A DNA stretch of 64,000 bases from an uncultured bacterium (GTDB taxonomy: Bacteria; Babelota; Babeliae; Babelales; Babelaceae). The stretch is from contig CAWFXL010000001.1 of the NCBI GenBank assembly GCA_963819815.1, forward strand, positions 192,001 to 256,000, written 5' to 3'. Below the pieces are notes generated by a model. The model was given only the letters and a program-made list of their open reading frames with translations. It had not been told where the DNA came from and ran no database searches. The translations under genes were made by a program, and so were the position numbers. Positions 13,600 to 40,700 of the stretch are shown piece after piece; the stretch's first letter is position 1; every line of letters begins with the position of its first letter.

Positions 13600-15102
13600 T
13601 TAATGAACTGCAATAGCGGCAACACTTTGTCCGGCCGCTTGCTCAGGCGAACGGAAGACGTTGTTAGATTTTCCCTTAGTATATCTATCCAGTAGCCAGT
13701 AGAAAGCAGCTCCTGCTACAATGCCTCCTAGGAGTCCTACGGAGAAGGGATATTTTTGGACGAATTGCGGAGAATTCTCTTTAAGCCGATTCAACAATTT
13801 CGCAACTATAGGACTAGATGCAGGATAAGATTCTTTGATCCATTCATCAAATCTTCCATCAATCGCATACGTAACATCACCTTGAAGTAGGCATTTCAAC
13901 TCTTTAATTCGATAATGTTCGATACAGGAAGACGAGCAAGAGTTGGCCATAAGAAATTGTCGAATACTTCCTTCCCTATGTGCAACAAAAGTAACCCAAT
14001 GCCCATCGGAACTTGTGCCCATACCATTGTTAAAAATAGTTTTTTGATCGGCATTGGTGTCGATTTTGTTTTTACTTGGCGATTTGAGGTAGATACAAAA
14101 TATTCCGGTTACAGAGCCTTTGTCACTCATAAATTGGTCGACAAATTGATTGAATGCGGTAGGTATAGGCTTTTTGGTGATGGGATCAAGAAGGTCGGGA
14201 TCAAAAAGTTGAGTGTCTTTTGTGAGCGCATCAGATCCCTGAAGCTGATTGTTGCCCGTAATAAAAATATTCTTCATATCAGCTTTTTCTGCATCGCGTA
14301 GTACTAGTTCTATATCATGGGAATCAATCCAATTGCCAATATGTCCGCTAGGCACTGAAACAGTAATATCCTTAAAATCGATGAGTGATTCGAGCATGCC
14401 AGGTTCTAGAAGCTCCACAAAGGACTGTTTATCCTCTATATTCGGATCATCTCTTCGCTCTCTTAATCGTTTTCTGAGTTGCTTCTTTATGACTGCTGCT
14501 GGTATCGTATATGATGAACCGTTATTCGCTTTCTGAGACTTTTCACCTAAGACCCTTGATAAAGATCTTACTTCTGACCTCAACTTATCCCAAGGTACTG
14601 CATTCTCTTCTGAAGGTGCTGGAAACGTTATCAAATGTTCATTTGATAACGTCCTGAAAATGCCCACATTCTGATCTTTACTGTGTATGAGTTTTGCGCC
14701 TTTATACATAAGCATGATCTGTTCCTCGATCGCTGGCCTTAACTCATCTTGGACATGACTGTTGATAACCGTTGCTCTCCAAGGACTTTCTGTAGAGGAA
14801 AATTTCTTATTACGGCTATCTATGTCATTCTTGAGATTTGTTAACGCAGCTGCGCGCTGAGTTTGGTCTGTAAGCTGCAAGATGTCACGTATAGCAAGGC
14901 CATTATAACTAGCTTGATAGCCACAACTCGCATAGCCATTCTCCATACCAAATTGGCTAGGAACGAGAAGTTGTATGGTATCGGTTCCATTGTCATAAGC
15001 AATAAAGCCTTTTAATTCTTCGCGAGAAAGTGGTACTGCTTCGATTAGTCCCACATATACTGAGAGCGTTAAAGAAATGACTAATAATCTGTTAATTTGC
15101 AT
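13600..15102 (-). CDS. Exported papain/Josephin-like cysteine protease candidate with C-terminal TM helix
   Basis: Signal peptide; SQ...SCGYQASYN, GHWVTF and MANS in triad order; TM segment VGLLGGIVAGAAFYWLL. Confidence 0.65.
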   Translation of the reverse strand: MQINRLLVISLTLSVYVGLIEAVPLSREELKGFIAYDNGTDTIQLLVPSQFGMENGYASCGYQASYNGLAIRDILQLTDQTQRAAALTNLKNDIDSRNKKFSSTESPWRATVINSHVQDELRPAIEEQIMLMYKGAKLIHSKDQNVGIFRTLSNEHLITFPAPSEENAVPWDKLRSEVRSLSRVLGEKSQKANNGSSYTIPAAVIKKQLRKRLRERRDDPNIEDKQSFVELLEPGMLESLIDFKDITVSVPSGHIGNWIDSHDIELVLRDAEKADMKNIFITGNNQLQGSDALTKDTQLFDPDLLDPITKKPIPTAFNQFVDQFMSDKGSVTGIFCIYLKSPSKNKIDTNADQKTIFNNGMGTSSDGHWVTFVAHREGSIRQFLMANSCSSSCIEHYRIKELKCLLQGDVTYAIDGRFDEWIKESYPASSPIVAKLLNRLKENSPQFVQKYPFSVGLLGGIVAGAAFYWLLDRYTKGKSNNVFRSPEQAAGQSVAAIAVH

Positions 15103-15503: not shown

Positions 15504-16967
15504 TTAGACATATTCTCTGAATAAATCATCAAGCGTTACTACTCCAGAGATGAGGTCTTCTGAATAGATGGTCTTTTTAAGGCCACTGGCAGAAATCATT
15601 GCAAGATAGAGCGTTTTTCGTGTTTTTGTTTGTTTTGCGAATACTGCGCATTTTTTTTGTAGTACTTGGGCATATTCCTTATCTATTGCAAAAGCCTTTT
15701 CAGTATATTTTATCTCACAGAGCGTTATTGATCGATCCTCTCTATCAAATAATAAATCAATTTGTGCTCCTTGCTCAGGAGAGCCCTTTTTTGGCACGAA
15801 GCGCCATTGGGATGCACCGGCCATTGTGAGATTTACCGCTTGTCTAATCAAAGGGACATGCTTATTGCAAATTGATTCAAAAGCACATCCTGCCCAGCTA
15901 TGCCATGCTGGAGAGTTTTGAACCTTCGTCCAATGTCCTTTCTCTTCCCCCCGTTCTATCATTTCTTTTTTTGGCTCTATCCACTTAAAGTAGAAGAGGC
16001 TATATTCGTCTGACATCTTATAGAAGATCCCTTTCTTTTTGCGACCAAAAGAGGTGAATCGTTGAATGAATCCTGTTTGCTCGAGCACTTCAAGGTGAGA
16101 CTTTAACCAGCCACCTGACTCTTGGACAGTCACCTGATCAAAAAGCTCTTCCTGGCCGATTCCATAACAATGCTGAGCTATAATTCTTGCCAATTCAGCG
16201 TGAATACTATCTTGGCCAAACAGCGTGGCATAGAGGAGCGAAAACTCCTTCAACAGAAAACTATCCTTTTTGAAAGCAAGATACTCAATGTTCTGCATAG
16301 CCGATAATCCAGCCTTTATTTGATCCAAATAAAACGGAATACCACCGATAACCATATAGAGATGGACAATATCATTATTAGCTAGCTTTACTTTCTTATG
16401 TTTCAAATACTCTTTTGTCTGATGCAAGTCGAATGGCTTTAGGTGGATCACCCGAGTAGCACGGTTATAGAGCCCCCCGATATTGTGAATGATATTTTTT
16501 AAAATCCAGTTCGATGCTGAACCGCAAATAATCAACTTAATTCTTCGGTCCATAGACCAATGGCGATTCCAAAAGTAATCGAGCATTTGAAGTAATTGAG
16601 ATTTTCTCGTAACCATCCAAGGAAATTCATCAAAGAACAAGACAATTTTCTTTTTCTGCGATAATTCGATCGTATTAGTGAGCAGATTAAATGTTTCTCT
16701 CCAATCCTTTTTAACACTGAGCTCAGGATGCCCAAAGGCACGAGCGATAGAGTCAGTAAATTGTGCAATTTGTTGCTCTTGAGTCCCGTCCTTTATGCCT
16801 GTTACGTACAAAAAGATGCTATTCGTTTTTTTTGAAAAGGTGTTCCTCACGAGAAATGTTTTTCCAACTCTTCGTCTGCCATAAAGGGCAATAAACTCAG
16901 GGTTGTCTGAATTGTAGGCTTCTTCAAGTATTTCTTTCTCTTCTTTTCTTCCAATAATCTTAAACAT
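15504..16967 (-). CDS. AAA ATPase (archaeal-type ATPase_2-like) with probable wHTH and C-terminal PD-(D/E)XK-like domain
   Basis: IIGRKEE, Walker A YGRRRVGKT, Walker B FFDEF, GGIPFYL, QIDLLFD...CEIKY. Confidence 0.9.
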   Translation of the reverse strand: MFKIIGRKEEKEILEEAYNSDNPEFIALYGRRRVGKTFLVRNTFSKKTNSIFLYVTGIKDGTQEQQIAQFTDSIARAFGHPELSVKKDWRETFNLLTNTIELSQKKKIVLFFDEFPWMVTRKSQLLQMLDYFWNRHWSMDRRIKLIICGSASNWILKNIIHNIGGLYNRATRVIHLKPFDLHQTKEYLKHKKVKLANNDIVHLYMVIGGIPFYLDQIKAGLSAMQNIEYLAFKKDSFLLKEFSLLYATLFGQDSIHAELARIIAQHCYGIGQEELFDQVTVQESGGWLKSHLEVLEQTGFIQRFTSFGRKKKGIFYKMSDEYSLFYFKWIEPKKEMIERGEEKGHWTKVQNSPAWHSWAGCAFESICNKHVPLIRQAVNLTMAGASQWRFVPKKGSPEQGAQIDLLFDREDRSITLCEIKYTEKAFAIDKEYAQVLQKKCAVFAKQTKTRKTLYLAMISASGLKKTIYSEDLISGVVTLDDLFREYV

Positions 16968-27692: not shown

Positions 27693-29135
27693 TTAGTTGT
27701 CGGGTGAGAAGATATCTGAAAAATTAATAATTTTTGCAAAAAAACCATTTGCTATAACTTCTTCATCGACGCCATTCACGTGAACTAAAACGGGCCTCAT
27801 TGAAAACCCTTTGGGATGAATCAGATGGGCCATTTTTTTTTGCATCTCTTTTATCACAGCTTTTCCAACGGGGTTTTTGGAAAACTTAAACTCACAAAGC
27901 CATAGCCCCCCGAAATGTGTCTGAATAAGATAATCAATCTGGCATCCAGGGAGCTTATTTGTCTTTCGTTGGAAAAAGGGATTGTCAGATACTATTTCAT
28001 CATGGCTGATTCCTAAGCAGTCCTTAATATATTGGCGATTTCTTAAAACGAGGTTGTCAAATTGCAGACCCATAAGAGAATCCCATCCGGGAAGCAATGA
28101 GAGTGATTTGGCAGTAAATGTATCAGTTTCTATTTTGGGTAGGTTTTTTTCAATATATTTCAAATAAAATCTTACGTAGTTATCGCTTAAGCGAAAATGA
28201 CTTAACCGTGAAGCTTCTCCTGAAGCAATATGCCAAGTATAGTCACGACTGACAAAGCCAGACTTTATAAGATCTTCAAGATATTCGCCTACAGATCCGC
28301 CTTGGTTTAACTCGAGTATTTTAGTTATTTCCTTAAGTTCACGAGCACCGTCTGCAAGGGTCTCAATAATTTTCTTATAGGTTTCAGTGCGCCGGGAAAA
28401 GATGTCATTAAAGATATCTTTAAACTCATGAACCAAAAGACCACGTTTAGTGAAACAGAGTTTGCGAATCGTTTGCTCTGCGGGTAAAGAAGGATTCATT
28501 TCTTCAAGATACCGAGGGACTCCACCGGTTACTGAGAGTACTTTTAGTTTTTCATAGGCCGAAATGAAATCCCCATTCTGAGCCCAAAACTGGTTACACT
28601 CTTTGAGTGGGAGCTCTTCAAGGGTGAGCCGATAAGATATTCGGCCAACGAAACCGGTGCTTGATAAGATGTTTTTATCGATCCACGTAGAAACTGATCC
28701 ACACAGGACAAGAATGAGGTTAGGGTTTTTCGCGAAATAGATGTCCCAGGCGTTCTTGAGTTTCCCTAAAAATTCAGGATCTTTTGAACCCATCCATGAA
28801 ATCTCATCAAATAGAACAATAATCCTACCGGTTTGAATGTCCCTATGCAACAAAATGAAGAGTTTGCTCCAATCGTCAGCAAAAACCTCAGGGGTTCCTG
28901 TTTGAGCGCTTAATTGACGAGAAAACTCATCTAATTGTGACTGCATCGTTGTGGCAGCGACAGGTGGGCTACCGGAAAAGTGGTAGAATGTATGATTCTT
29001 AGCAAATTCTTCAACGAGACGACTTTTGCCGATTCGTCGACGTCCCTGAATAACGACGAGACTTGCAGTTTTTTTTTCAAATAATTCCGAAAGCTCAGCT
29101 AGTTCACGCTTTCTACCAATAAATGGGCGGGCCAT
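27693..29135 (-). CDS. AAA ATPase (ATPase_2-like) with probable wHTH and PD-(D/E)XK-like C-terminus; paralog of 15504..16967
   Basis: FIGRKRE, QGRRRIGKS, LFDEI, GGVPRYL, QIDYLI...CEFKF; start MARPF at 29135. Confidence 0.9.
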   Translation of the reverse strand: MARPFIGRKRELAELSELFEKKTASLVVIQGRRRIGKSRLVEEFAKNHTFYHFSGSPPVAATTMQSQLDEFSRQLSAQTGTPEVFADDWSKLFILLHRDIQTGRIIVLFDEISWMGSKDPEFLGKLKNAWDIYFAKNPNLILVLCGSVSTWIDKNILSSTGFVGRISYRLTLEELPLKECNQFWAQNGDFISAYEKLKVLSVTGGVPRYLEEMNPSLPAEQTIRKLCFTKRGLLVHEFKDIFNDIFSRRTETYKKIIETLADGARELKEITKILELNQGGSVGEYLEDLIKSGFVSRDYTWHIASGEASRLSHFRLSDNYVRFYLKYIEKNLPKIETDTFTAKSLSLLPGWDSLMGLQFDNLVLRNRQYIKDCLGISHDEIVSDNPFFQRKTNKLPGCQIDYLIQTHFGGLWLCEFKFSKNPVGKAVIKEMQKKMAHLIHPKGFSMRPVLVHVNGVDEEVIANGFFAKIINFSDIFSPDN

Positions 29136-29167
29136 AGGGTACTCCAATATCAAAAACTTTCTAAAGA

Positions 29168-29266
29168 TCACTAATCATAAATGGAAAAAGCCAATTATGA
29201 TTGGTGAAACTCTGCCCCAAGTTTACCACTCATAATTGGAAAAAGTCGATTATGATTAGTGAAACT
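29168..29266. repeat. Two tandem inverted-repeat units upstream of the ATPase gene, 55-bp period
   Basis: TCACTAATCATAA..GGAAAAAG....TTATGATTGGTGAAACT and TTACCACTCATAA..GGAAAAAG....TTATGATTAGTGAAACT. Confidence 0.9.
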
Positions 29267-33343: not shown

Positions 33344-33541
33344 TGTCCGTTATGGAGGTACAAAAAATCAATTTTTAGACTTGCATAACGGACAAAAAAC
33401 CAATAATGAATGATGGTCTTAGGTATATATACTCGGCAGATAGAGGTCAAAACTATTATTCATAAGGTCTTTTTATGACAAAGCAAGCTGTCCTTTACAA
33501 AGTGCTAAAAATCATATAAAGTAGACTAACGTAATGGACAG
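33344..33541. repeat. Two inverted-repeat units upstream of the ATP-binding protein gene
   Basis: TGTCCGTTATG(33344)...CATAACGGACA(33394) and CTGTCCTTTAC(33488)...GTAATGGACAG(33541); both spacers share AAAAATCA...TAGACT; offset about 145 bp. Confidence 0.8.
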
Positions 33542-33566
33542 TTTTTTTAGAAGGGGGGCTGATGCT

Positions 33567-34874
33567 ATGGTTAAGTTGTTTGAAGAGATGATCAGAGAGT
33601 TTCACGCATCCCATATACCAACGCCTAGCAGAAGAGATATCTTTATTCCTAGCTTTCCTGAGCATGTGCGTAAGGCTTTAGTATTTATAGGCATGAGAAG
33701 AAGCGGGAAGACGTGGATGCTCTACCAAGTCATGAAAGATCTCATGGCGCAAGGTGTAGACATAACCAAAATAGTCTACATTAATTTTGAGGATGAGCGC
33801 CTGAGTGATATGCAAAAAAATAATTTTCAGGACATTCTCAAGGCTTATTTTCAGCTTTTTCCAGAGTATACGCACAGAAGAGATATACACTTCTTTTTTG
33901 ACGAAATACATGAAATTCCATTGTGGGAAAAGTTCATTCGGCGTCTGCTGGACCAGGGACATATGAACCTCTACATAACAGGCTCATCATCTAAGATGCT
34001 CAGTAAAGAGATAGCCACATCTTTACGGGATAGAACGTATTCACTCGAGGTCTATCCTTTCAGCTTTGGCGAAGTACTACGGCAAAAAAATATTGCAACA
34101 ACAGAGCCAATCGTGGGTCGCACTAAGAACCAGGTAATACATCAATTAAGAATTTTTCTAGAGAGAGGTGGTTTTCCCGAGGTACTGGATCGCTCTTCGC
34201 AGGAACATCGAAATCTTTTACAAGAGTACACCTCAACTGTTCTTTATCGCGATATAGTCGATAGATATGGGGTTCGAAGCATTCTTGTTCTTAAGCACCT
34301 ATTAACGCATAGCTTAAGAAATAGTGCAACACAGTTTAGTATCACAAAAATGCATAACTCTCTTAAGTCTATGGGCATCGATGCAAGCAGAACTGCGATG
34401 TATGAATTTATGGGTTATTTCGAGGATGCTTACTGCGTTTTTTCGCTCGATAAATACACTATCTCTTTCCGCAAATCATCTCAGAGTGTTAAAAAAATTT
34501 TTGCGGTAGATCAAGGACTGATAACATCAGTAACCATGGCAAGCAAACTTGATGAATCGGCACAACTTGAAACAGCGGTTTTTGCGCATCTTCGTCGCCA
34601 AACATCTCAGTTATTCTACTATCGTTCTTCTGATAATAAAGAGGTAGATTTTATAAGCATTTTAGATGACCAAACAATGCATCTTTATCAAGTTTCGTTA
34701 TCAATAGCAGATGAGGAAACAAGAAAAAGAGAAGTCAGTGCTTTAGAGACAGCTATGAAAGAGCTTCAGATTCAAAGTGGAACGATCATAACACTGGATG
34801 AAAATGAAATAATTACTACTTCATACGGAACGATCTACGTTGTTCCTGCTTGGAAGCTTTTTTTGGGTCTCTAA
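33567..34874 (+). CDS. ATP-binding protein, AAA_14 + DUF4143-type
   Basis: IGMRRSGKT, YINFEDER, FFDEIH, ITGSSSK, GGFPE, KIFAVDQG, KEVDF...YQVS; probable start 33567 after AAGGGGGG. Confidence 0.92.
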   Translation: MVKLFEEMIREFHASHIPTPSRRDIFIPSFPEHVRKALVFIGMRRSGKTWMLYQVMKDLMAQGVDITKIVYINFEDERLSDMQKNNFQDILKAYFQLFPEYTHRRDIHFFFDEIHEIPLWEKFIRRLLDQGHMNLYITGSSSKMLSKEIATSLRDRTYSLEVYPFSFGEVLRQKNIATTEPIVGRTKNQVIHQLRIFLERGGFPEVLDRSSQEHRNLLQEYTSTVLYRDIVDRYGVRSILVLKHLLTHSLRNSATQFSITKMHNSLKSMGIDASRTAMYEFMGYFEDAYCVFSLDKYTISFRKSSQSVKKIFAVDQGLITSVTMASKLDESAQLETAVFAHLRRQTSQLFYYRSSDNKEVDFISILDDQTMHLYQVSLSIADEETRKREVSALETAMKELQIQSGTIITLDENEIITTSYGTIYVVPAWKLFLGL

Positions 34875-34941: not shown

Positions 34942-34995
34942 AATCCTTACTATTTGCCTAAATAGCAGCTATCAGACTAGGCTCATTTAAACGTG

Positions 34996-35047
34996 CCCGA
35001 CTTTTCAGCTTGCAATTTCTAGAGCTCCCGCTATACTAATAATCAAA
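34996..35047 (+). promoter_or_regulatory. Right copy of the 52-bp repeat, containing the probable promoter of the RING gene
   Basis: TTGCAA-16 nt-TATACT at 35010..35037. Confidence 0.6.
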
Positions 35048-35092
35048 TAGTAATTTAATCAAGAATTGATAATTTCACGTAGAAGAGGATTT

Positions 35093-36950
35093 ATGAATCG
35101 TGTATTTCTCTATGTAGCTCTTATGAGCAGCTTTTCAACATCTGTGCATCTTATGAATGGCTCAAGCATAGCTACTCTTGAGGTGCAGGCATTAGAAGAA
35201 CAAGAAGCTCAAGCTGATATCTGTTCTACCTGCCGTGAATCCCTTGGGCCAGTATTAGAAGTCCTCGTTAAAGAACATAATCAATATATCAAGCTGTCTC
35301 CAGAAGTATTAAAAGCTACTCCTGAAGAGCGTAAAGCTTCTTTGCTGAGGCTCTCAGCCGATCCTGCTATGCCAGCAGCACAGAAACGATTAATTCAAAA
35401 TACAATCCTTCAAGAGCAGGAGCTCTTTGATAAAGTCACGAAAAAATATACGGCAGCTCAAACTCGTTTAAAAAAGATTAAGGAACAGTTACTGAGTGCA
35501 GAGTTTCTGGAGGGTGTGCAAGATGGATTCACTAAAGAGATCACAAAAGCGAGGCAACAGTTGAACTCTCCGGGTATTACTGATGAAGAAAAGGTACCTC
35601 TTAAGGACGATATAGCTAGATGGGAATCGATCAAGAGTGACATTATGAAGTTTAGTGCACTTGTGACAAGCATACGCTCTGCTTCTGAGCAAGAGGATAT
35701 TACTGGAGCACTTGAGCGACGAAATGCTCAAGTTGCCTAGCGTAGAAGCACGGTATAACAAGACTATTGATAGTATGCTTGAAATAGAATTATTAAGAGA
35801 AGCAAAAGAAACCCACTTACATTGTGCACATAGATTCCATAAAGACTGCCTTGATTCCCATTTCAAATCACAAAGCATCACCTTGCCTTCTGTTTCCATG
35901 CAATGTCCTACCTGTAGGGCCGATTTAGATGAGAGTGATCTTCATAGCATTTCAATAGAGCTTACCCTTGATGATTATATTGGCTTTATAAACAATAAGC
36001 TTTGCGATCTTCTCCCTATGACGAACCGCACTCATCTTACTAGGTTTTTAGCAGATCCTCTGCTAGTCGGGGAACTAGAAACCATGCTAGGACTCTCGCG
36101 GGCTGAGGTAGAACAAATCATATCTAAGCTGAAAGAGCTGCTTGCGAGTCTTACTGTTGAGAATCTTATGCAAAAGGGATTTCATGGTCTCATACAAGAA
36201 AAATTTCCGAGCTACTCAAAGGAACACGTAGCTTATGACATCAATCGTCTTGTAAAAACCATTGTCGCCTTACTTAACATACTAACATTCCTGGATGATG
36301 AGTTGTTGTCTGATACCGAGGCTGGGCCAGTTCTTAAGAGTCTTATGCTATTGTTATTAAAGGTACCAGAGCCTCAGCTGCAAGCGGATAGTCCCGCCCT
36401 TTTTCAGAGCATCGTAAATTCTGATGCATTGATACGATGCGGTGTCAACTTAGCGCTGCCTTTCGTTGTGGACGGGATTAATGCTTTTTTGAGCATGCCT
36501 GTAAGGCGTAGCCGCACGGCAATAGTCACTCTGCAAATTATTCATTTCCTTGAATGTCAAGCGAGACAAGATAATCAAATCTTTGTTGAACGTTTACATC
36601 GTTCTTTGTATCCCATAAGGTTAAACGAAGGATCTGCTGCTATTGTTGCAGATCTACTTCTATCTCAAGCTACAGGTGACACATTGCATGAAGCTCTGAG
36701 AAATCTTATCAATCATAATCCGGCTCTTCGTTCCCAAATACGAAGTGCTGCAGCTCTTCACATAGAGCATCAAGAACAAACCCATGCCCAAATTCGAAGA
36801 AGGTTTTGCATGTGTAATCACCAGATTAAGTTTTTTCTTGGAGCTTCACTTTATACATTCATCGTTATTGTGGCGACCCATTTTCTTCGAGACTACATGG
36901 AACAAGCGCATGCATTAAGAACTACTACACAAAACGTGCCATTCTTATAA
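35093..36950 (+). pseudogene. Exported RING-H2 protein with a long helical insertion and C-terminal TM, split by a +1 frameshift at about 35736 (or a sequencing error)
   Basis: CSTC in ORF 35066..35740; CAHRFHKDC...CPTC in ORF 35712..36950; removing one C gives about 618 aa. Confidence 0.78.
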
Positions 36951-37856
36951 AAGGGTTGTCCGATCTTTGCGTTTCTGCGTATTGATATGTTGAACATGCT
37001 TCATTCCATTGCCGACTTCAACATAGTCTAGGCAGAGGAAGGTTGGCAGATGCGATGGTTGAGATTGAGTATCAAGGCCCCGTGAGAGGGCTCTTTTAAG
37101 AAATGCATCTAAGCTTTCAGTATTAATCCGCTCATAAGCATTATTAGTATTTAAATCAAAAAAGGGAAAATAATTTAAGAGGTATAAGGATCGACGCTCC
37201 TTTTTATGGGCCTTTGATTCAGGGCGTTCTCTGCATGCTCGTGCAGGATGGAGAGCTCCCCATTGATTTTCAACAACATGGCGCCATTGATCAAAGCAAT
37301 ATTTTGTTTCACCCGTCGCATTAAAAATAATTAACCGTTTATTAGTCGTCCGCATCCATTCAAAGGTAGGCCAATTTGGTGTGGCTGGATTGGTACGTAG
37401 GATGTAGGTATCAAGGCCCGCCTTTAAAAAGCAGCTGTCGAGAAGGGAAGAGTCTTTTACGTAATTCTCAAGAAATATCGTAAGTACTTCTAAGGGATTA
37501 TCCTCAAGAAACTGACGAATCATTTCAAGTGCCCGCAAAAAGGGCATAGGCTCTTTACCTCGGCAAATAAGCCTTGTGAGAAAGGACGTTTTATGTATAA
37601 GTACGACATCGTTTTTTGACTCACCTATATCGAGCATGAGACCTCGCACACCATACGCAAGCTGCTTTTCGATGCTTAAGCTTTGCTGAGCATAGAGATA
37701 ACCATGCTCAAGTGCTGCATAAGAATTATGTGAGGTGAAATGACACACTTCATCATACCGCAGTTTCCCCTCAAATGGCTCCCAACTGCCGTATACAAAA
37801 TGACAAAAAAAAGCACAAAAAAAGGCCCTCGAAAGGGCTGTAAACAAACTGTTCAT
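36945..37856 (-). CDS. PI-PLC X-domain-like phosphodiesterase, exported
   Basis: FTSHNSY, QLAYGVRGLMLD, FLEDNPLEVLTIFLE, WPT..M...NKRLIIF; start MNSLF after GGGGGAGG. Confidence 0.85.
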   Translation of the reverse strand: MNSLFTALSRAFFCAFFCHFVYGSWEPFEGKLRYDEVCHFTSHNSYAALEHGYLYAQQSLSIEKQLAYGVRGLMLDIGESKNDVVLIHKTSFLTRLICRGKEPMPFLRALEMIRQFLEDNPLEVLTIFLENYVKDSSLLDSCFLKAGLDTYILRTNPATPNWPTFEWMRTTNKRLIIFNATGETKYCFDQWRHVVENQWGALHPARACRERPESKAHKKERRSLYLLNYFPFFDLNTNNAYERINTESLDAFLKRALSRGLDTQSQPSHLPTFLCLDYVEVGNGMKHVQHINTQKRKDRTTLL

Positions 37857-37917
37857 AGTCCCTCCCCCTAGCACTTAGTATAGGCAATAGGGATGAGGAA
37901 ACACAAGAAAAGAATGG

Positions 37918-38595
37918 CTAATCAGAGATATAGTGATAAATCGCTTGCTTGGCAATCCAATCAGCAATAAATGGGAGGCGACACGCAGTGATCAATGAAC
38001 CTGCGATAAGCGTCTTCTGATTAATCTTTTCATCCATGAGGCCACTATAGGTTAAATTAACCGCATAACTGACGGTAGCATCCTCGACGAACCTGCGACC
38101 TATCTCGTATCCTTCATTTATTTTTTCTCCCTCTTTTGGTTCTGAATAGAATCCTATTTTAAAGGGGATTCGATAAATAGCATCAAGTATAGAGGGAATA
38201 CGTAGAGCATCGATTAAGGCACTTTTAATGAGAGCTTTGTGATTAGGCTTTTCGTCCTGCACATACGTCATTGCATAGCCCAGAGCATAACTGGTACCGG
38301 CATCTTCGACATAGGTAGAAGCCAAAGAAAAGAGATTACTTTTCCAGGTGGGCTTTTCTATAAGCTTTGCTGTAGTCTTTTCTGTTGGTTTCTTTGACCT
38401 TGCATCCTCTGATTCCTCCTTTTGAATGGGCCTTCTTTGTTGAAGATAGGCTTTTCTTAGCCGTTTAATGGGGTCGAGCTCTTCTTCAGTCTTTGAAGAA
38501 ATACCCTGTGAGATTTGTACTGGCTCATCTACAGCGTAGAGCTGATGGGCTCCAACGCATGCACCGATGAACAGAACTAGAACTAATTTTTTCAT
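37918..38595 (-). CDS. Exported hypothetical protein with an internal ~46-aa duplication
   Basis: Signal peptide; YVEDAGTSYA...DEKPNHKALI...RIP versus FVEDATVSYA...DEKINQKTLI...RLP. Confidence 0.8.
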   Translation of the reverse strand: MKKLVLVLFIGACVGAHQLYAVDEPVQISQGISSKTEEELDPIKRLRKAYLQQRRPIQKEESEDARSKKPTEKTTAKLIEKPTWKSNLFSLASTYVEDAGTSYALGYAMTYVQDEKPNHKALIKSALIDALRIPSILDAIYRIPFKIGFYSEPKEGEKINEGYEIGRRFVEDATVSYAVNLTYSGLMDEKINQKTLIAGSLITACRLPFIADWIAKQAIYHYISD

Positions 38596-38879
38596 AAGTA
38601 TTTGACCTTCTTAGTAGGGCGAGCCTCTGCGCTTGCCTATATCTCAAGGATACGACAAGCATTTCTTAACGTCAAAAGGCCCATGAATTCTTCTATGGAA
38701 GATGAAAATGGTGGGAAGTTCTATTATTATCATAATCTGGTAGTGCTTTAAAGAGTTGAATCGTTGAAAAATACTTCTCATTGACCATATTCGGATTTGT
38801 CGAAAGTGGGTGGCGGGTGACTCCATACAGTCAGGCATAGGGTTCTGTCAATTGCCCAATACTACTATCTAATAAAGGT

Positions 38880-39341
38880 TTTGACAGTTGCTCAAAGGGT
38901 GTAATTATTAATTTCAGGAAAGGAATTGAGTGGCTTTTGTCTACGATCTTCTTTACTGGCGGCATGATTTGGGAGGAGGTTTTTATGCAAGAAAGAAGGA
39001 GTATTGTGGACTATTGCCCCTCTTAAACCGGGAAGAGGCTGGTTCTATAGGGGGTGGTTTTACCTTCTTGTGCAAATCGGTCTAATCTGTGGGGAAAAGA
39101 TAGGTTTTCGAGGGTCTATGAACCTATTCTTAGGGATGAACGTACTTGGGAAAAGGGGGAGAAAACCCTCGTGGTCCTTGGTAGAAAAATGTTGTGAAAG
39201 GGATAGGTCACCTAGATCAGAAAATCCCTTGAAATCGAATTATTCATGAAAAAAAGTCCTTCCTAAACCCTAAGAATATGATAGAGTAGTGAGTGTTCTT
39301 AACAGGGGTGTTAACAAAACAATTTTTAAGCTAGGTGTACC
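38880..39341. promoter_or_regulatory. dnaA upstream region, possible oriC
   Basis: About 750 bp intergenic gap; only degenerate, co-oriented DnaA-box-like 9-mers at 39005, 39069, 39088 and 39193. Confidence 0.3.
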
Positions 39342-40700
39342 ATGGTGAACAGAGCCACATTATGGCAGGATCTCCTATTAATGCTTACTGACGAAGTGGG
39401 TAGCAGGGTAGTAGAAACCTGGTTTAAAGCAATATCATTTTCTCGATGGGATGCAGATACTAAGACGGCCTACGTGAGCGCTCCAAATGCCTTTGTACGC
39501 GATTGGGTCTCATCACAATACCAAGGTCTTTTAAAAACCCATCTAAGTAGGCTTCTTAATACGAATGTTTCGCTTACTTTTATAGATGAGAGTAAAACTG
39601 GCGTACAAAAGGTCGAAAAAGATAAACCTTCGATGTCTCGAATGCCTAAAGCTCCAGATGCTCAAAGTTCACGTAATCAAATAAGTGCTCGGTACGGATT
39701 TGATAGTTATATCATAGGTGAGCATAATTCAGTTGCTGTCGCAGCTGCTCAGGCAGTTGCTGAAAAGCCGGGGGTTCTGTATAATCCTTTTTTTATTACC
39801 GGCGGCTCTGGGATGGGAAAAACCCATCTTTTGCAGGCGATCGGTAATCAGATAAAGCATACGCATCCTCAGGCAAAAGTGGTTTACCAGTCTGGTGATA
39901 GATTTGTGCATGAATTTGTGAATGCGATTCGGTACGGTAAGATCAAAAACTTTGAGGAGCGCTATAAGGATGCTGATGTACTCTTGGTTGATGATATTCA
40001 GCTGCTATCTCATAAGGAGCAGACCCAAGAAGCGTTCTTCCATATTTTTTCGACACTATATGAAAAAGGAAAACAGATCATCTTTGCCTCTGATGTCCTT
40101 CCTGACCAAATTGAAGGACTGTCAGAGCGCCTTAAATCCCGGCTAAATGGCTCATTGATAGCAGATATCCAGCCACCTTCAGTGGCAACAAAAATAGCTA
40201 TCGTTCAAAATAAAGCGCTTCTTCAAAAGACTCCTATCAGGGATGATGTCGCTTCCTTTATTGCTACACGTTCTTCCTCAAACGTACGTGAACTTGAAGG
40301 GCTGCTGATTCGTGTCCTTGCTTTTGCTGCCTTGACTCACCAAGTACTTACGGTTGATCTTGCTCACAAGGTGCTTGCGAGAACGACCATTGAGACAAGA
40401 CAACAGGCGCTGCTCGATTTACCTCAGGTGGCATCCTGTGTGGCGAAGCACTTTAGTACCAGTATTGCTGAACTGCGGTCCACAAAGCGGCAAAAGAATC
40501 TTGTAGATGCGCGGCACGTTGCTATGTATTTTATGAAGAAGCACACAGAAAATTCATTACGTGACATTGCTGCTTATTGGTGTCGTAAGGATCATACGAC
40601 CGTTATCCATGCGATTGCTAAGGTAGAAAAACTACGACTTCTCGATACGATACTCGATCAGAAGATGGCTGCTATTGAGCGGGAGCTTCTTCATCGGTAG
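39342..40700 (+). CDS. dnaA: Chromosomal replication initiator DnaA
   Basis: YNPFFITGGSGMGKTHLL, LLVDDIQ, TQEAFFHIF, RLKSRL, NVRELEG, RHVAMY, KDHTTVIHA. Confidence 0.98.
   Translation: MVNRATLWQDLLLMLTDEVGSRVVETWFKAISFSRWDADTKTAYVSAPNAFVRDWVSSQYQGLLKTHLSRLLNTNVSLTFIDESKTGVQKVEKDKPSMSRMPKAPDAQSSRNQISARYGFDSYIIGEHNSVAVAAAQAVAEKPGVLYNPFFITGGSGMGKTHLLQAIGNQIKHTHPQAKVVYQSGDRFVHEFVNAIRYGKIKNFEERYKDADVLLVDDIQLLSHKEQTQEAFFHIFSTLYEKGKQIIFASDVLPDQIEGLSERLKSRLNGSLIADIQPPSVATKIAIVQNKALLQKTPIRDDVASFIATRSSSNVRELEGLLIRVLAFAALTHQVLTVDLAHKVLARTTIETRQQALLDLPQVASCVAKHFSTSIAELRSTKRQKNLVDARHVAMYFMKKHTENSLRDIAAYWCRKDHTTVIHAIAKVEKLRLLDTILDQKMAAIERELLHR

Follow-up and report, generated by a model that had tools for sequence, protein, structure and literature searches.

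A RING-H2 gene with a helical insert in its first zinc loop, probably broken by a frameshift, in a Babelaceae bacterium

We analyzed two adjacent open reading frames (ORFs), ORF1 and ORF2, in a 64,000-nucleotide (nt) stretch of DNA from an uncultured bacterium of the family Babelaceae; this whole stretch, hereafter the window, corresponds to C1:192001-256000 of the 1.64-Mb genome G000, which consists of two contigs. Our results indicate, with a probability of about 0.6, that ORF1 and ORF2 are the halves of one gene from a family of very narrow distribution in a Dependentiae parasite of protists, made up of exported RING-H2 proteins with a C-terminal anchor and a helical insert in the first zinc-binding loop, and that the window copy is frameshifted. 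The two ORFs lie on the plus strand in frames that differ by one, overlap by 29 nt, and are listed as separate proteins (P0007 and P0008) in the public annotation. When the break is read through (with X at the break), they yield 618 residues containing all eight zinc ligands in the order C-C-C-H-H-C-C-C (C44, C47, C244, H246, H249, C252, C271, and C274), with ligands 2 and 3 separated by 196 residues. C44 and C47 are the only cysteines of ORF1, in which approximately 165 residues follow the motif; the distal six ligands, in ORF2, read C-A-H-R-F-H-K-D-C-x18-C-P-T-C-R. The first-pass annotation, which was made from the DNA letters, had placed the C-x2-C pair in ORF1 and the other six ligands in ORF2 correctly, at the positions given in Table 1.

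The two halves of the RING finger

To align the window gene with ordinary RING fingers, we used a family profile consisting of the RING regions of 10 normal-loop homologs from other genomes. This profile was split between the two ORFs: positions 2-16 matched residues 37-51 of ORF1 (7.1 bits) and positions 17-77 matched residues 25-85 of ORF2 (53.2 bits), which locates the insert exactly between profile positions 16 and 17. As a control, the first 16 profile columns, which hold the C-x2-C module, were compared with the 6,595 ORFs that a six-frame translation of the genome yields at a minimum length of 60 amino acids (aa); ORF1 ranked first (12.5 bits, E 0.038), and its intact paralog P0002 ranked second (10.4 bits, E 0.18). 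The split profile and the module ranking together show that the N-terminal C-x2-C corresponds by homology to ligands 1 and 2 of a normal RING finger. The N-terminal match was obtained for 8 of the 10 proteins bearing a cysteine pair, the two without it being P0003 and its ortholog in the sister genome G001, which have C-x3-C.

The insert begins directly after C-x2-C-R-E-x-L and ends directly before the strand leading into C-x-H. Between ligands 2 and 3 lie 196 residues in both the window gene and the 532-aa G001 copy, 193 in P0002, 191 in the 601-aa G001 protein, 188 in P0011, and 186 in P0003, compared with 11-19 residues in the normal-loop homologs. A range of 9-39 residues for the first loop, quoted here from the first-pass annotation, is thus far exceeded (186-196 residues). 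Most members of the family have no cysteine in the insert. Among the 11 insert-bearing proteins, C1 is kept in all and C2 in 10, in groups with identities as low as 23-30% (range 23-50%), and the order of the eight ligands is kept in 9 of the 10 insert-bearing proteins other than the window gene (two of the nine with C-x3-C), P0009 being the exception. In an eight-row alignment (A3), 8 of the 26 invariant columns were the zinc ligands.

The RING finger of synoviolin/HRD1 was matched by a profile of the wider family at E 3.2e-9, in an alignment that includes the first C-x2-C; at E <= 0.01 the profile matched 98 PDB sequences, and TRIM2, AMFR, and RNF38 were also matched. A proline after C7 and an arginine after C8 are features that contact the ubiquitin-conjugating enzyme (E2), and both are present in the window gene (CPTCR). 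Judged from its sequences, the wider family is a bona fide RING-H2 family.

Standard profiles recovered only part of this arrangement. The Pfam family zf-RING_2 (PF13639) matched ORF2 from position 14 to 44 of 44 with an E value of 4.8e-5 and 24.0 bits, below the cut-off of 27.3 bits, and a Pfam search of ORF1 returned nothing meaningful. The intact paralog P0002 scored barely above the cut-offs of zf-RING_2 (27.7 versus 27.3) and zf-C3HC4 (22.0 versus 21), its best match being zf-rbx1 (29.8 bits, cut-off 31). All Pfam RING profiles ran to their ends, but they began at position 12-16 on the insert-bearing proteins and at position 2 on the normal-loop homologs. The expectation that standard domain searches would miss the finger was therefore half right: ORF2 falls below the Pfam cut-off, but zf-RING_2 detects the distal two thirds. 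The gene departs from the classical rule of ligand spacing, and the window copy also misses the Pfam cut-off; the protein is best described as a RING-H2 derivative and not as a standard member. The proposal of a RING-H2 finger with a large helical insertion in its first loop nevertheless holds, with a size of approximately 190 residues, on the evidence of the intact relatives, the normal-loop homologs, and the split profile.

One gene, broken at position 35718

Intact homologs spanning the junction of the two ORFs, which the first-pass annotation had named as a check, were found in both genomes. Two intact tandem paralogs in G000 (C1:1467744-1469972; P0002, 318 aa, and P0003, 366 aa) matched residues 57-302 and 26-299 of the read-through protein without stops. 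The sister genome G001 contains six copies, five of them complete, with four in tandem on one contig and two on another. In the intact paralogs and the G001 copies, the parts follow the same order: an N-terminal hydrophobic leader, the C-x2-C pair, the helical insert, and the six remaining ligands.

Positions 34986-38992 of the window aligned with the second copy of the G001 pair and its downstream genes at 92-93% identity, so the window gene and this second copy are orthologs. Identity at the gene level was 93.1% over 1,899 nt, and the ORF1 protein was 90% identical to the first 208 residues of the ortholog. The neighboring tandem copy in G001 (532 aa) is intact and has no counterpart in the genome of the window.

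DNA alignment with both syntenic G001 copies, which read through the site, revealed exactly one extra base in the window at position 35718, GAGC[G]ACGAAATG. At the junction the G001 proteins read ...GALEHEMLKLPSVEA..., following the ORF1 frame through GALE and the ORF2 frame from EMLKLPS on. The ORF1 part terminates 22 nt past the extra base, and the remainder of the RING finger is left in the other frame. The two ORFs were thus once one gene, as the first-pass annotation had supposed; however, it had placed the frameshift at GCCTAG (35736-35741), approximately 20 nt downstream of the actual site, and the junction that it derived, ...ALERRNAQVASVEA..., is not the ancestral one, which is ...GALEHEMLKLPSVEA....

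The window gene therefore differs from its intact orthologs by a frame-breaking change, and the break is not conserved at that site, which is the mark of a pseudogene. In the present frame a full protein is impossible, so the window copy is most likely a recent pseudogene or the product of an assembly error. Between these two, we consider it probable that the pseudogene is real. In the comparison with the G001 ortholog, the ORF1 part had 13 synonymous and 20 non-synonymous differences and the ORF2 part 24 and 26, with ratios of non-synonymous to synonymous substitution rates (dN/dS) of 0.42 and 0.29, respectively; the intact paralogs P0002 and P0003 gave 0.64 and 0.43 against their own G001 orthologs. 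The lack of extra relaxation in the broken copy is compatible both with a frameshift of very recent date and with an error.

An error of assembly or consensus, in which the extra base would exist in the assembled sequence only and the gene of the organism would be intact with approximately 617 residues, is the strongest of the alternatives, although we consider it rather unlikely. It agrees with the dN/dS ratios, which for neither half exceed those of the intact paralogs. Over positions 35000-37000 we compared the window with four public soil-metagenome runs; the sole contig that crossed position 35718 came from a G001-like strain (approximately 94% identical) and lacked the extra base. Since 35718 is covered by no near-identical contig, the frameshift may be such an error, and a genome in two contigs suggests long reads, which are prone to indels. 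However, position 35718 lies outside any homopolymer, and in the 64-kb window the domains of conserved genes are covered in full by Pfam matches (DNA_alkylation 2-213 of 213, Peptidase_M17 2-309 of 310, FTSW 4-354 of 356, PGK 2-376 of 379, and DnaA), which implies that indel errors are uncommon here. Moreover, the G001 ortholog carries a frameshift of its own at a T run (T7 versus T6 at 36485-36490 of the window), through which its ORF stops early at 500 aa with an unrelated tail and the C-terminal third is lost. That the breaks in G000 and G001 fall at separate sites of the same ortholog could reflect parallel decay or homopolymer slippage; the independent breaks suggest that the ortholog pair is dispensable in both lineages.

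Predicted structures and the role of the first ligand pair

We ran AlphaFold2 on P0002 with eight homologs, and the resulting model had a mean predicted local distance difference test score (pLDDT) of 69. The insert was modeled as long helices over residues 62-236, with block-mean pLDDT values of 58-94 (85-94 at residues 71-110). In the model of the ORF2 product, pLDDT was 82-94 for the distal RING, 70-94 for the distal RING together with the post-RING helices, and below 60 for the remainder. A Foldseek search with the P0002 model gave local RING matches over 41-44 columns with root-mean-square deviations of 1.5-2.5 (APC11, TRIM5, and RNF125), and the ORF2 model also gave local RING matches. 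For the insert of the P0002 model, VIA-align returned generic helical hairpins and coiled coils (Z <= 7.7) and Foldseek no match at E <= 0.001; for the post-RING domain of the ORF2 model, no informative fold match was obtained, the best (Z 6.3) being below the noise level of the tool and located elsewhere in the model. A complex prediction of P0002 residues 28-72 and 212-300 with two zinc ions scored 0.25 and 0.24, under the 0.32 mark, in a run without controls. The zinc cross-brace is thus inferred from homology and conservation.

These models bear on the possibility that the N-terminal C-x2-C survives as a relic or serves another purpose, the distal part forming a degenerate one-zinc or U-box-like RING without it. 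AlphaFold2 folds the distal part confidently in the absence of the first pair and assigns low confidence to C-x2-C, and such a relic would accommodate P0003, with its C-x3-C, and P0009, which lacks C2. However, the first zinc site of a cross-brace requires ligands 1, 2, 5, and 6, and no substitute ligands were seen beside C-x-H in the insert-bearing proteins. Both cysteines are also kept in 10 of 11 proteins at 23-30% identity, in a region that is otherwise little conserved, and their flanking residues rank first and second genome-wide with the module profile of normal RING fingers. We therefore regard a relic pair as improbable.

Separate products and recoding

A functional two-gene system, in which ORF1 and ORF2 are made separately and the RING finger is assembled in trans via the helical insert, could draw on the ATG at 35724, which is in frame with ORF2 and within the overlap with ORF1, and on the dN/dS ratios below 1 in both halves. 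However, the intact G001 copies also have this ATG, as an internal methionine codon, so it was not acquired for the split, and no other family member is split at the 35718 site. The ORF2 product would also lack an export leader, the GGAG upstream of the ATG is 15 nt distant, and no promoter-like site on the plus strand precedes ORF2, although the promoter and terminator scan itself was no better than chance (4 promoter-like sites versus 5.4 expected). Taken together, these observations make assembly in trans very unlikely.

A programmed +1 ribosomal frameshift, which the 29-nt overlap would permit since a +1 shift would join the frames, is hardly credible: both G001 copies are single-frame here with one base different, whereas conservation would be expected of a programmed site; the switch of frame in the protein sequence falls at 35718 and not at the stop codon; and no slippery run was seen in the overlap. 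By comparison with the G001 copies, the change at 35718 is an ordinary indel and no conserved recoding site.

Distribution and origin of the insert

Among 261 genomes of the order, the insert-bearing form was found in two, G000 and G001; a search among relatives likewise found it in 2 of 41 genomes. Out of 1.84 billion representative proteins, 10 matched at E <= 0.001, of which seven were insert-bearing (the two halves from the window included) and three had a normal loop. A word-indexed search of proteins of similar length returned four at E <= 0.001, the query included. In a scan of Joint Genome Institute (JGI) metagenomes, 2 of 75 loci were insert-bearing (L052 and L053, on contigs of the same lengths as those of L025 and L026, which carry G001 copies), and the other 73 matched only from residue 189 onward. 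No source of the insert was found, as there was no other match in its own genome, nothing outside the family among the 1.84 billion representatives, and nothing in the 261 genomes of the order.

The order contains many ordinary RING-H2 proteins, of which some have ankyrin repeats, and normal-loop homologs of the window gene occur in three genomes of the same genus (G003, G004, and G007) and in metagenomes (P0012, P0013, and P0014). In a tree of the distal RING and post-RING region, all 11 insert-bearing proteins fell on one side of a branch, and P0013, which has the longest normal loop (19 residues), was nearest to them. The insert can be aligned across all 11 proteins, which fits one origin. 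The nearest clusters in the ESM Atlas were RING finger proteins, mostly of giant viruses, with scores of 0.83-0.85, and are leads only.

Three other observations concern members and relatives of the family. P0003 (G000:C1:1467744-1468676) and its G001 ortholog (L019:1399-2379) have C-x3-C as the first pair and histidine in place of the basic residue after C8; this branch of the family may be degenerating or have shifted in function. A 637-aa ORF in G004 (contig C3, L018) contains Ala/Pro-rich repeats, a RING finger, and further cysteine-rich blocks that by eye resemble an IBR and a second RING, which suggests that this Dependentiae genome encodes an RBR-type ligase. Long ankyrin-repeat proteins with an embedded normal RING-H2 finger are encoded by L011 (contig C14) and L017 (contig C4) of G016, which belongs to another genus of the same family.

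Possible function

Amoebae and flagellates are the hosts of cultured Dependentiae, which are obligate parasites. In this setting, an exported, membrane-anchored mimic of a host RING-type ubiquitin ligase (E3) is the best-supported reading of the family, with export, host target, and activity as inferences. An alpha-helical module of 186-196 residues has been inserted in the first zinc loop of the insert-bearing subfamily; homologs in the same genus keep the normal loop. Once exported, the protein would work as a RING-type E3 ligase in the cytosol of the host: its six distal ligands and the N-terminal C-x2-C would fold back together into a cross-brace that binds two zinc ions, and the cross-brace would recruit the E2~ubiquitin conjugate of the host. 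The insert would form a helical arm that projects from the RING finger and captures substrate or mediates self-association, and the post-RING helical domain and the hydrophobic tail would place the protein on a membrane. With the extra base at 35718, the window copy in its sequenced form is a recent pseudogene, while the two paralogs at C1:1467744-1469972 are intact. A stronger form of the proposal, that the RING cross-brace tolerates a helical loop-1 insert of approximately 190 residues and stays an active E3 with an arm growing from the catalytic finger, is tentative, and we give it somewhat less than even odds.

The predicted length of 618 residues and the C-terminal hydrophobic segment agree with the first-pass annotation, which had also proposed a signal peptide; the leader of the window gene, however, is only weakly hydrophobic, remaining below the threshold of 1.8 on the Kyte-Doolittle scale, compared with 2.4-2.6 in the paralogs. 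An anchor-like segment is also present in the long homologs, namely the 532-aa and 601-aa proteins of G001, the 537-aa protein of G007, P0012, and P0013.

Several observations weigh against the family and frameshift described here. Export was judged by hydropathy, and a Sec-exported protein would still need a route to the host cytosol. P0003 and its G001 ortholog, with C-x3-C and histidine after C8, have no match to the module profile; the metagenomic protein P0009 begins with MICARS, with serine at the C2 position and no leader; and the window subgroup has threonine before C2 instead of the usual isoleucine or valine. In the P0002 model, pLDDT in the C-x2-C region was 45-54, compared with block means of 58-79 in the distal RING. 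The branch that separates the insert-bearing proteins received support values of 45/66 and occurred in 52% of bootstrap trees, which is weak for a single origin. Finally, the contigs of 99-100% identity in the four metagenome runs (X1 and X3) reach only 35758-35964 and 36072-36222, none extending over 35718.

Comparison with known RING-H2 proteins

The canonical RING-H2 E3 ligases (synoviolin/HRD1, AMFR/gp78, and RNF38; zf-RING_2, PF13639, and zf-rbx1, PF12678) have the same eight ligands in C3H2C3 order, and HRD1 and gp78 are membrane-anchored. The window family differs from them in being bacterial, in its loop 1 of 186-196 residues, and in its N-terminal leader and C-terminal anchor. The normal-loop RING-H2 proteins of the same genus are much closer, sharing the leader, the C-x2-C context DIC.IC.E.L (DICVICREPL, DICSICLTEY), the distal RING, and the post-RING L.L.(I/V)T.DD helical domain, and their long forms share the hydrophobic tail; however, they have no insert, Pfam covers them from position 2 to 44 of 44, and the G007 protein has ankyrin repeats before the RING finger. 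Extra sequence within a RING-H2 finger has a precedent in the Rbx1/APC11 type, in which an additional stretch of approximately 20 residues forms a third zinc site, whereas the insert of the window family is approximately 190 residues long, helical, and mostly free of cysteine.

Genes for a RING finger protein, an F-box protein, and a C19 deubiquitinase are described in passages of the genome report of Babela massiliensis, where secretion is predicted for the products, which are thought to act on host ubiquitin signaling (Pagnier 2015, PMC4378268). That bacterium shares phylum and lifestyle with the source of the window; the passages mention one RING finger protein and no insert, and the likeness drawn here is to their description only (PMC4378268). 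For Chromulinavorax, signal peptides are given for 44% of coding sequences in a passage of Deeg 2019 (PMC6561590). The word RING does not occur in the available text of Deeg 2019 (PMC6561590) and Yeoh 2016 (PMC4776705), and we found no report of an interrupted RING layout among the papers listed by searches that were confined to the open-access literature. The family is thus of a known kind, the eukaryote-like RING E3 mimics of intracellular bacteria; what is new is a domain-sized insert between ligands 2 and 3 together with insert-free sisters in the same genus.

Few small domains have been studied as much as RING fingers, and the spacing of RING ligands is used for the definition of the domain. 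A family in which approximately 190 residues separate ligands 2 and 3 would reveal the tolerance of the cross-brace to inserted sequence, and the insert-free sisters offer a ready comparison. Annotation based on thresholds misses such genes, as seen for ORF2, which is below the Pfam cut-off, and ORF1, which is unannotated. To what is known of Dependentiae, the family adds likely host-directed mimics of ubiquitin ligases that are lineage-specific and subject to duplication and decay. The window copy, being broken, is itself of little direct importance, and the intact paralogs are the proteins of interest.

Features of the window gene and its neighborhood

The features of the gene are collected in Table 1. 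ORF1 starts at the ATG at 35093, with an alternative TTG at 35066, and its stop codon occupies 35738-35740.

Table 1. Positions of the parts of the split RING-H2 gene in the window
Feature	Position	Strand	Remarks
ORF1, N-terminal fragment	35093..35740	+	215 aa; leader, C-x2-C, and most of the helical insert; TAG end created by the frameshift
N-terminal leader	35093..35167	+	~25 residues, MNRVFLYVALMSSFSTSVHLMNGSS; signal-peptide-like by sequence and hydropathy
First zinc-ligand pair, C44-x2-C47 (ADICSTCRESL)	35222..35233	+	sequence and profile positions 2-16
Helical insert, RING loop 1	35234..35822	+	196 residues from C47 to C244 (read-through); frame break inside
Frame break	35718	+	one extra base versus both G001 copies (DNA alignments); outside homopolymer
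ORF2	35724..36950	+	408 aa from ATG 35724, 412 aa from TTG 35712; end of insert, remainder of RING, post-RING domain, anchor
Distal six RING-H2 ligands, C-x-H-x2-H-x2-C-x18-C-x2-C, then R	35823..35915	+	Pfam, family profile, pLDDT, and local Foldseek matches
Post-RING helical domain (starts SISIELTLDD...)	35916..36248	+	alignments; common to normal-loop homologs; pLDDT 70-88
T6 run	36485..36490	+	T7 in the G001 ortholog, a separate frameshift there
C-terminal hydrophobic segment, putative membrane anchor (FFLGASLYTFIVIVATHFL)	36831..36887	+	residues 580-598; Kyte-Doolittle 2.25

A gene for an AAA_14/DUF4143 ATPase (33534-34874, plus strand) lies directly upstream of ORF1, at a place where G001 holds another tandem RING copy instead. 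Two more genes of the ATPase_2 type are present in the window, at 15504-16967 (with DUF234) and at 27693-29171; given these and the absence of the upstream gene at the G001 place, the ATPases may be mobile or expanding. The convergent neighbor of ORF2 (36945-37874, minus strand), which is syntenic in G001, encodes a protein with an N-terminal hydrophobic leader and a borderline match to the PI-PLC X-domain (23.0 bits, cut-off 23.1), and its product may be another exported, host-directed enzyme. The first-pass annotation had also linked the RING gene to a deubiquitinase-like candidate at 13600, a link that finds no support, as the ORF at 13600-15102 (minus strand) matches no Pfam family at E <= 0.001. 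The dnaA gene (39342-40700, plus strand) is located 2.4 kb downstream of the RING gene, and the locus is therefore probably near the replication origin.

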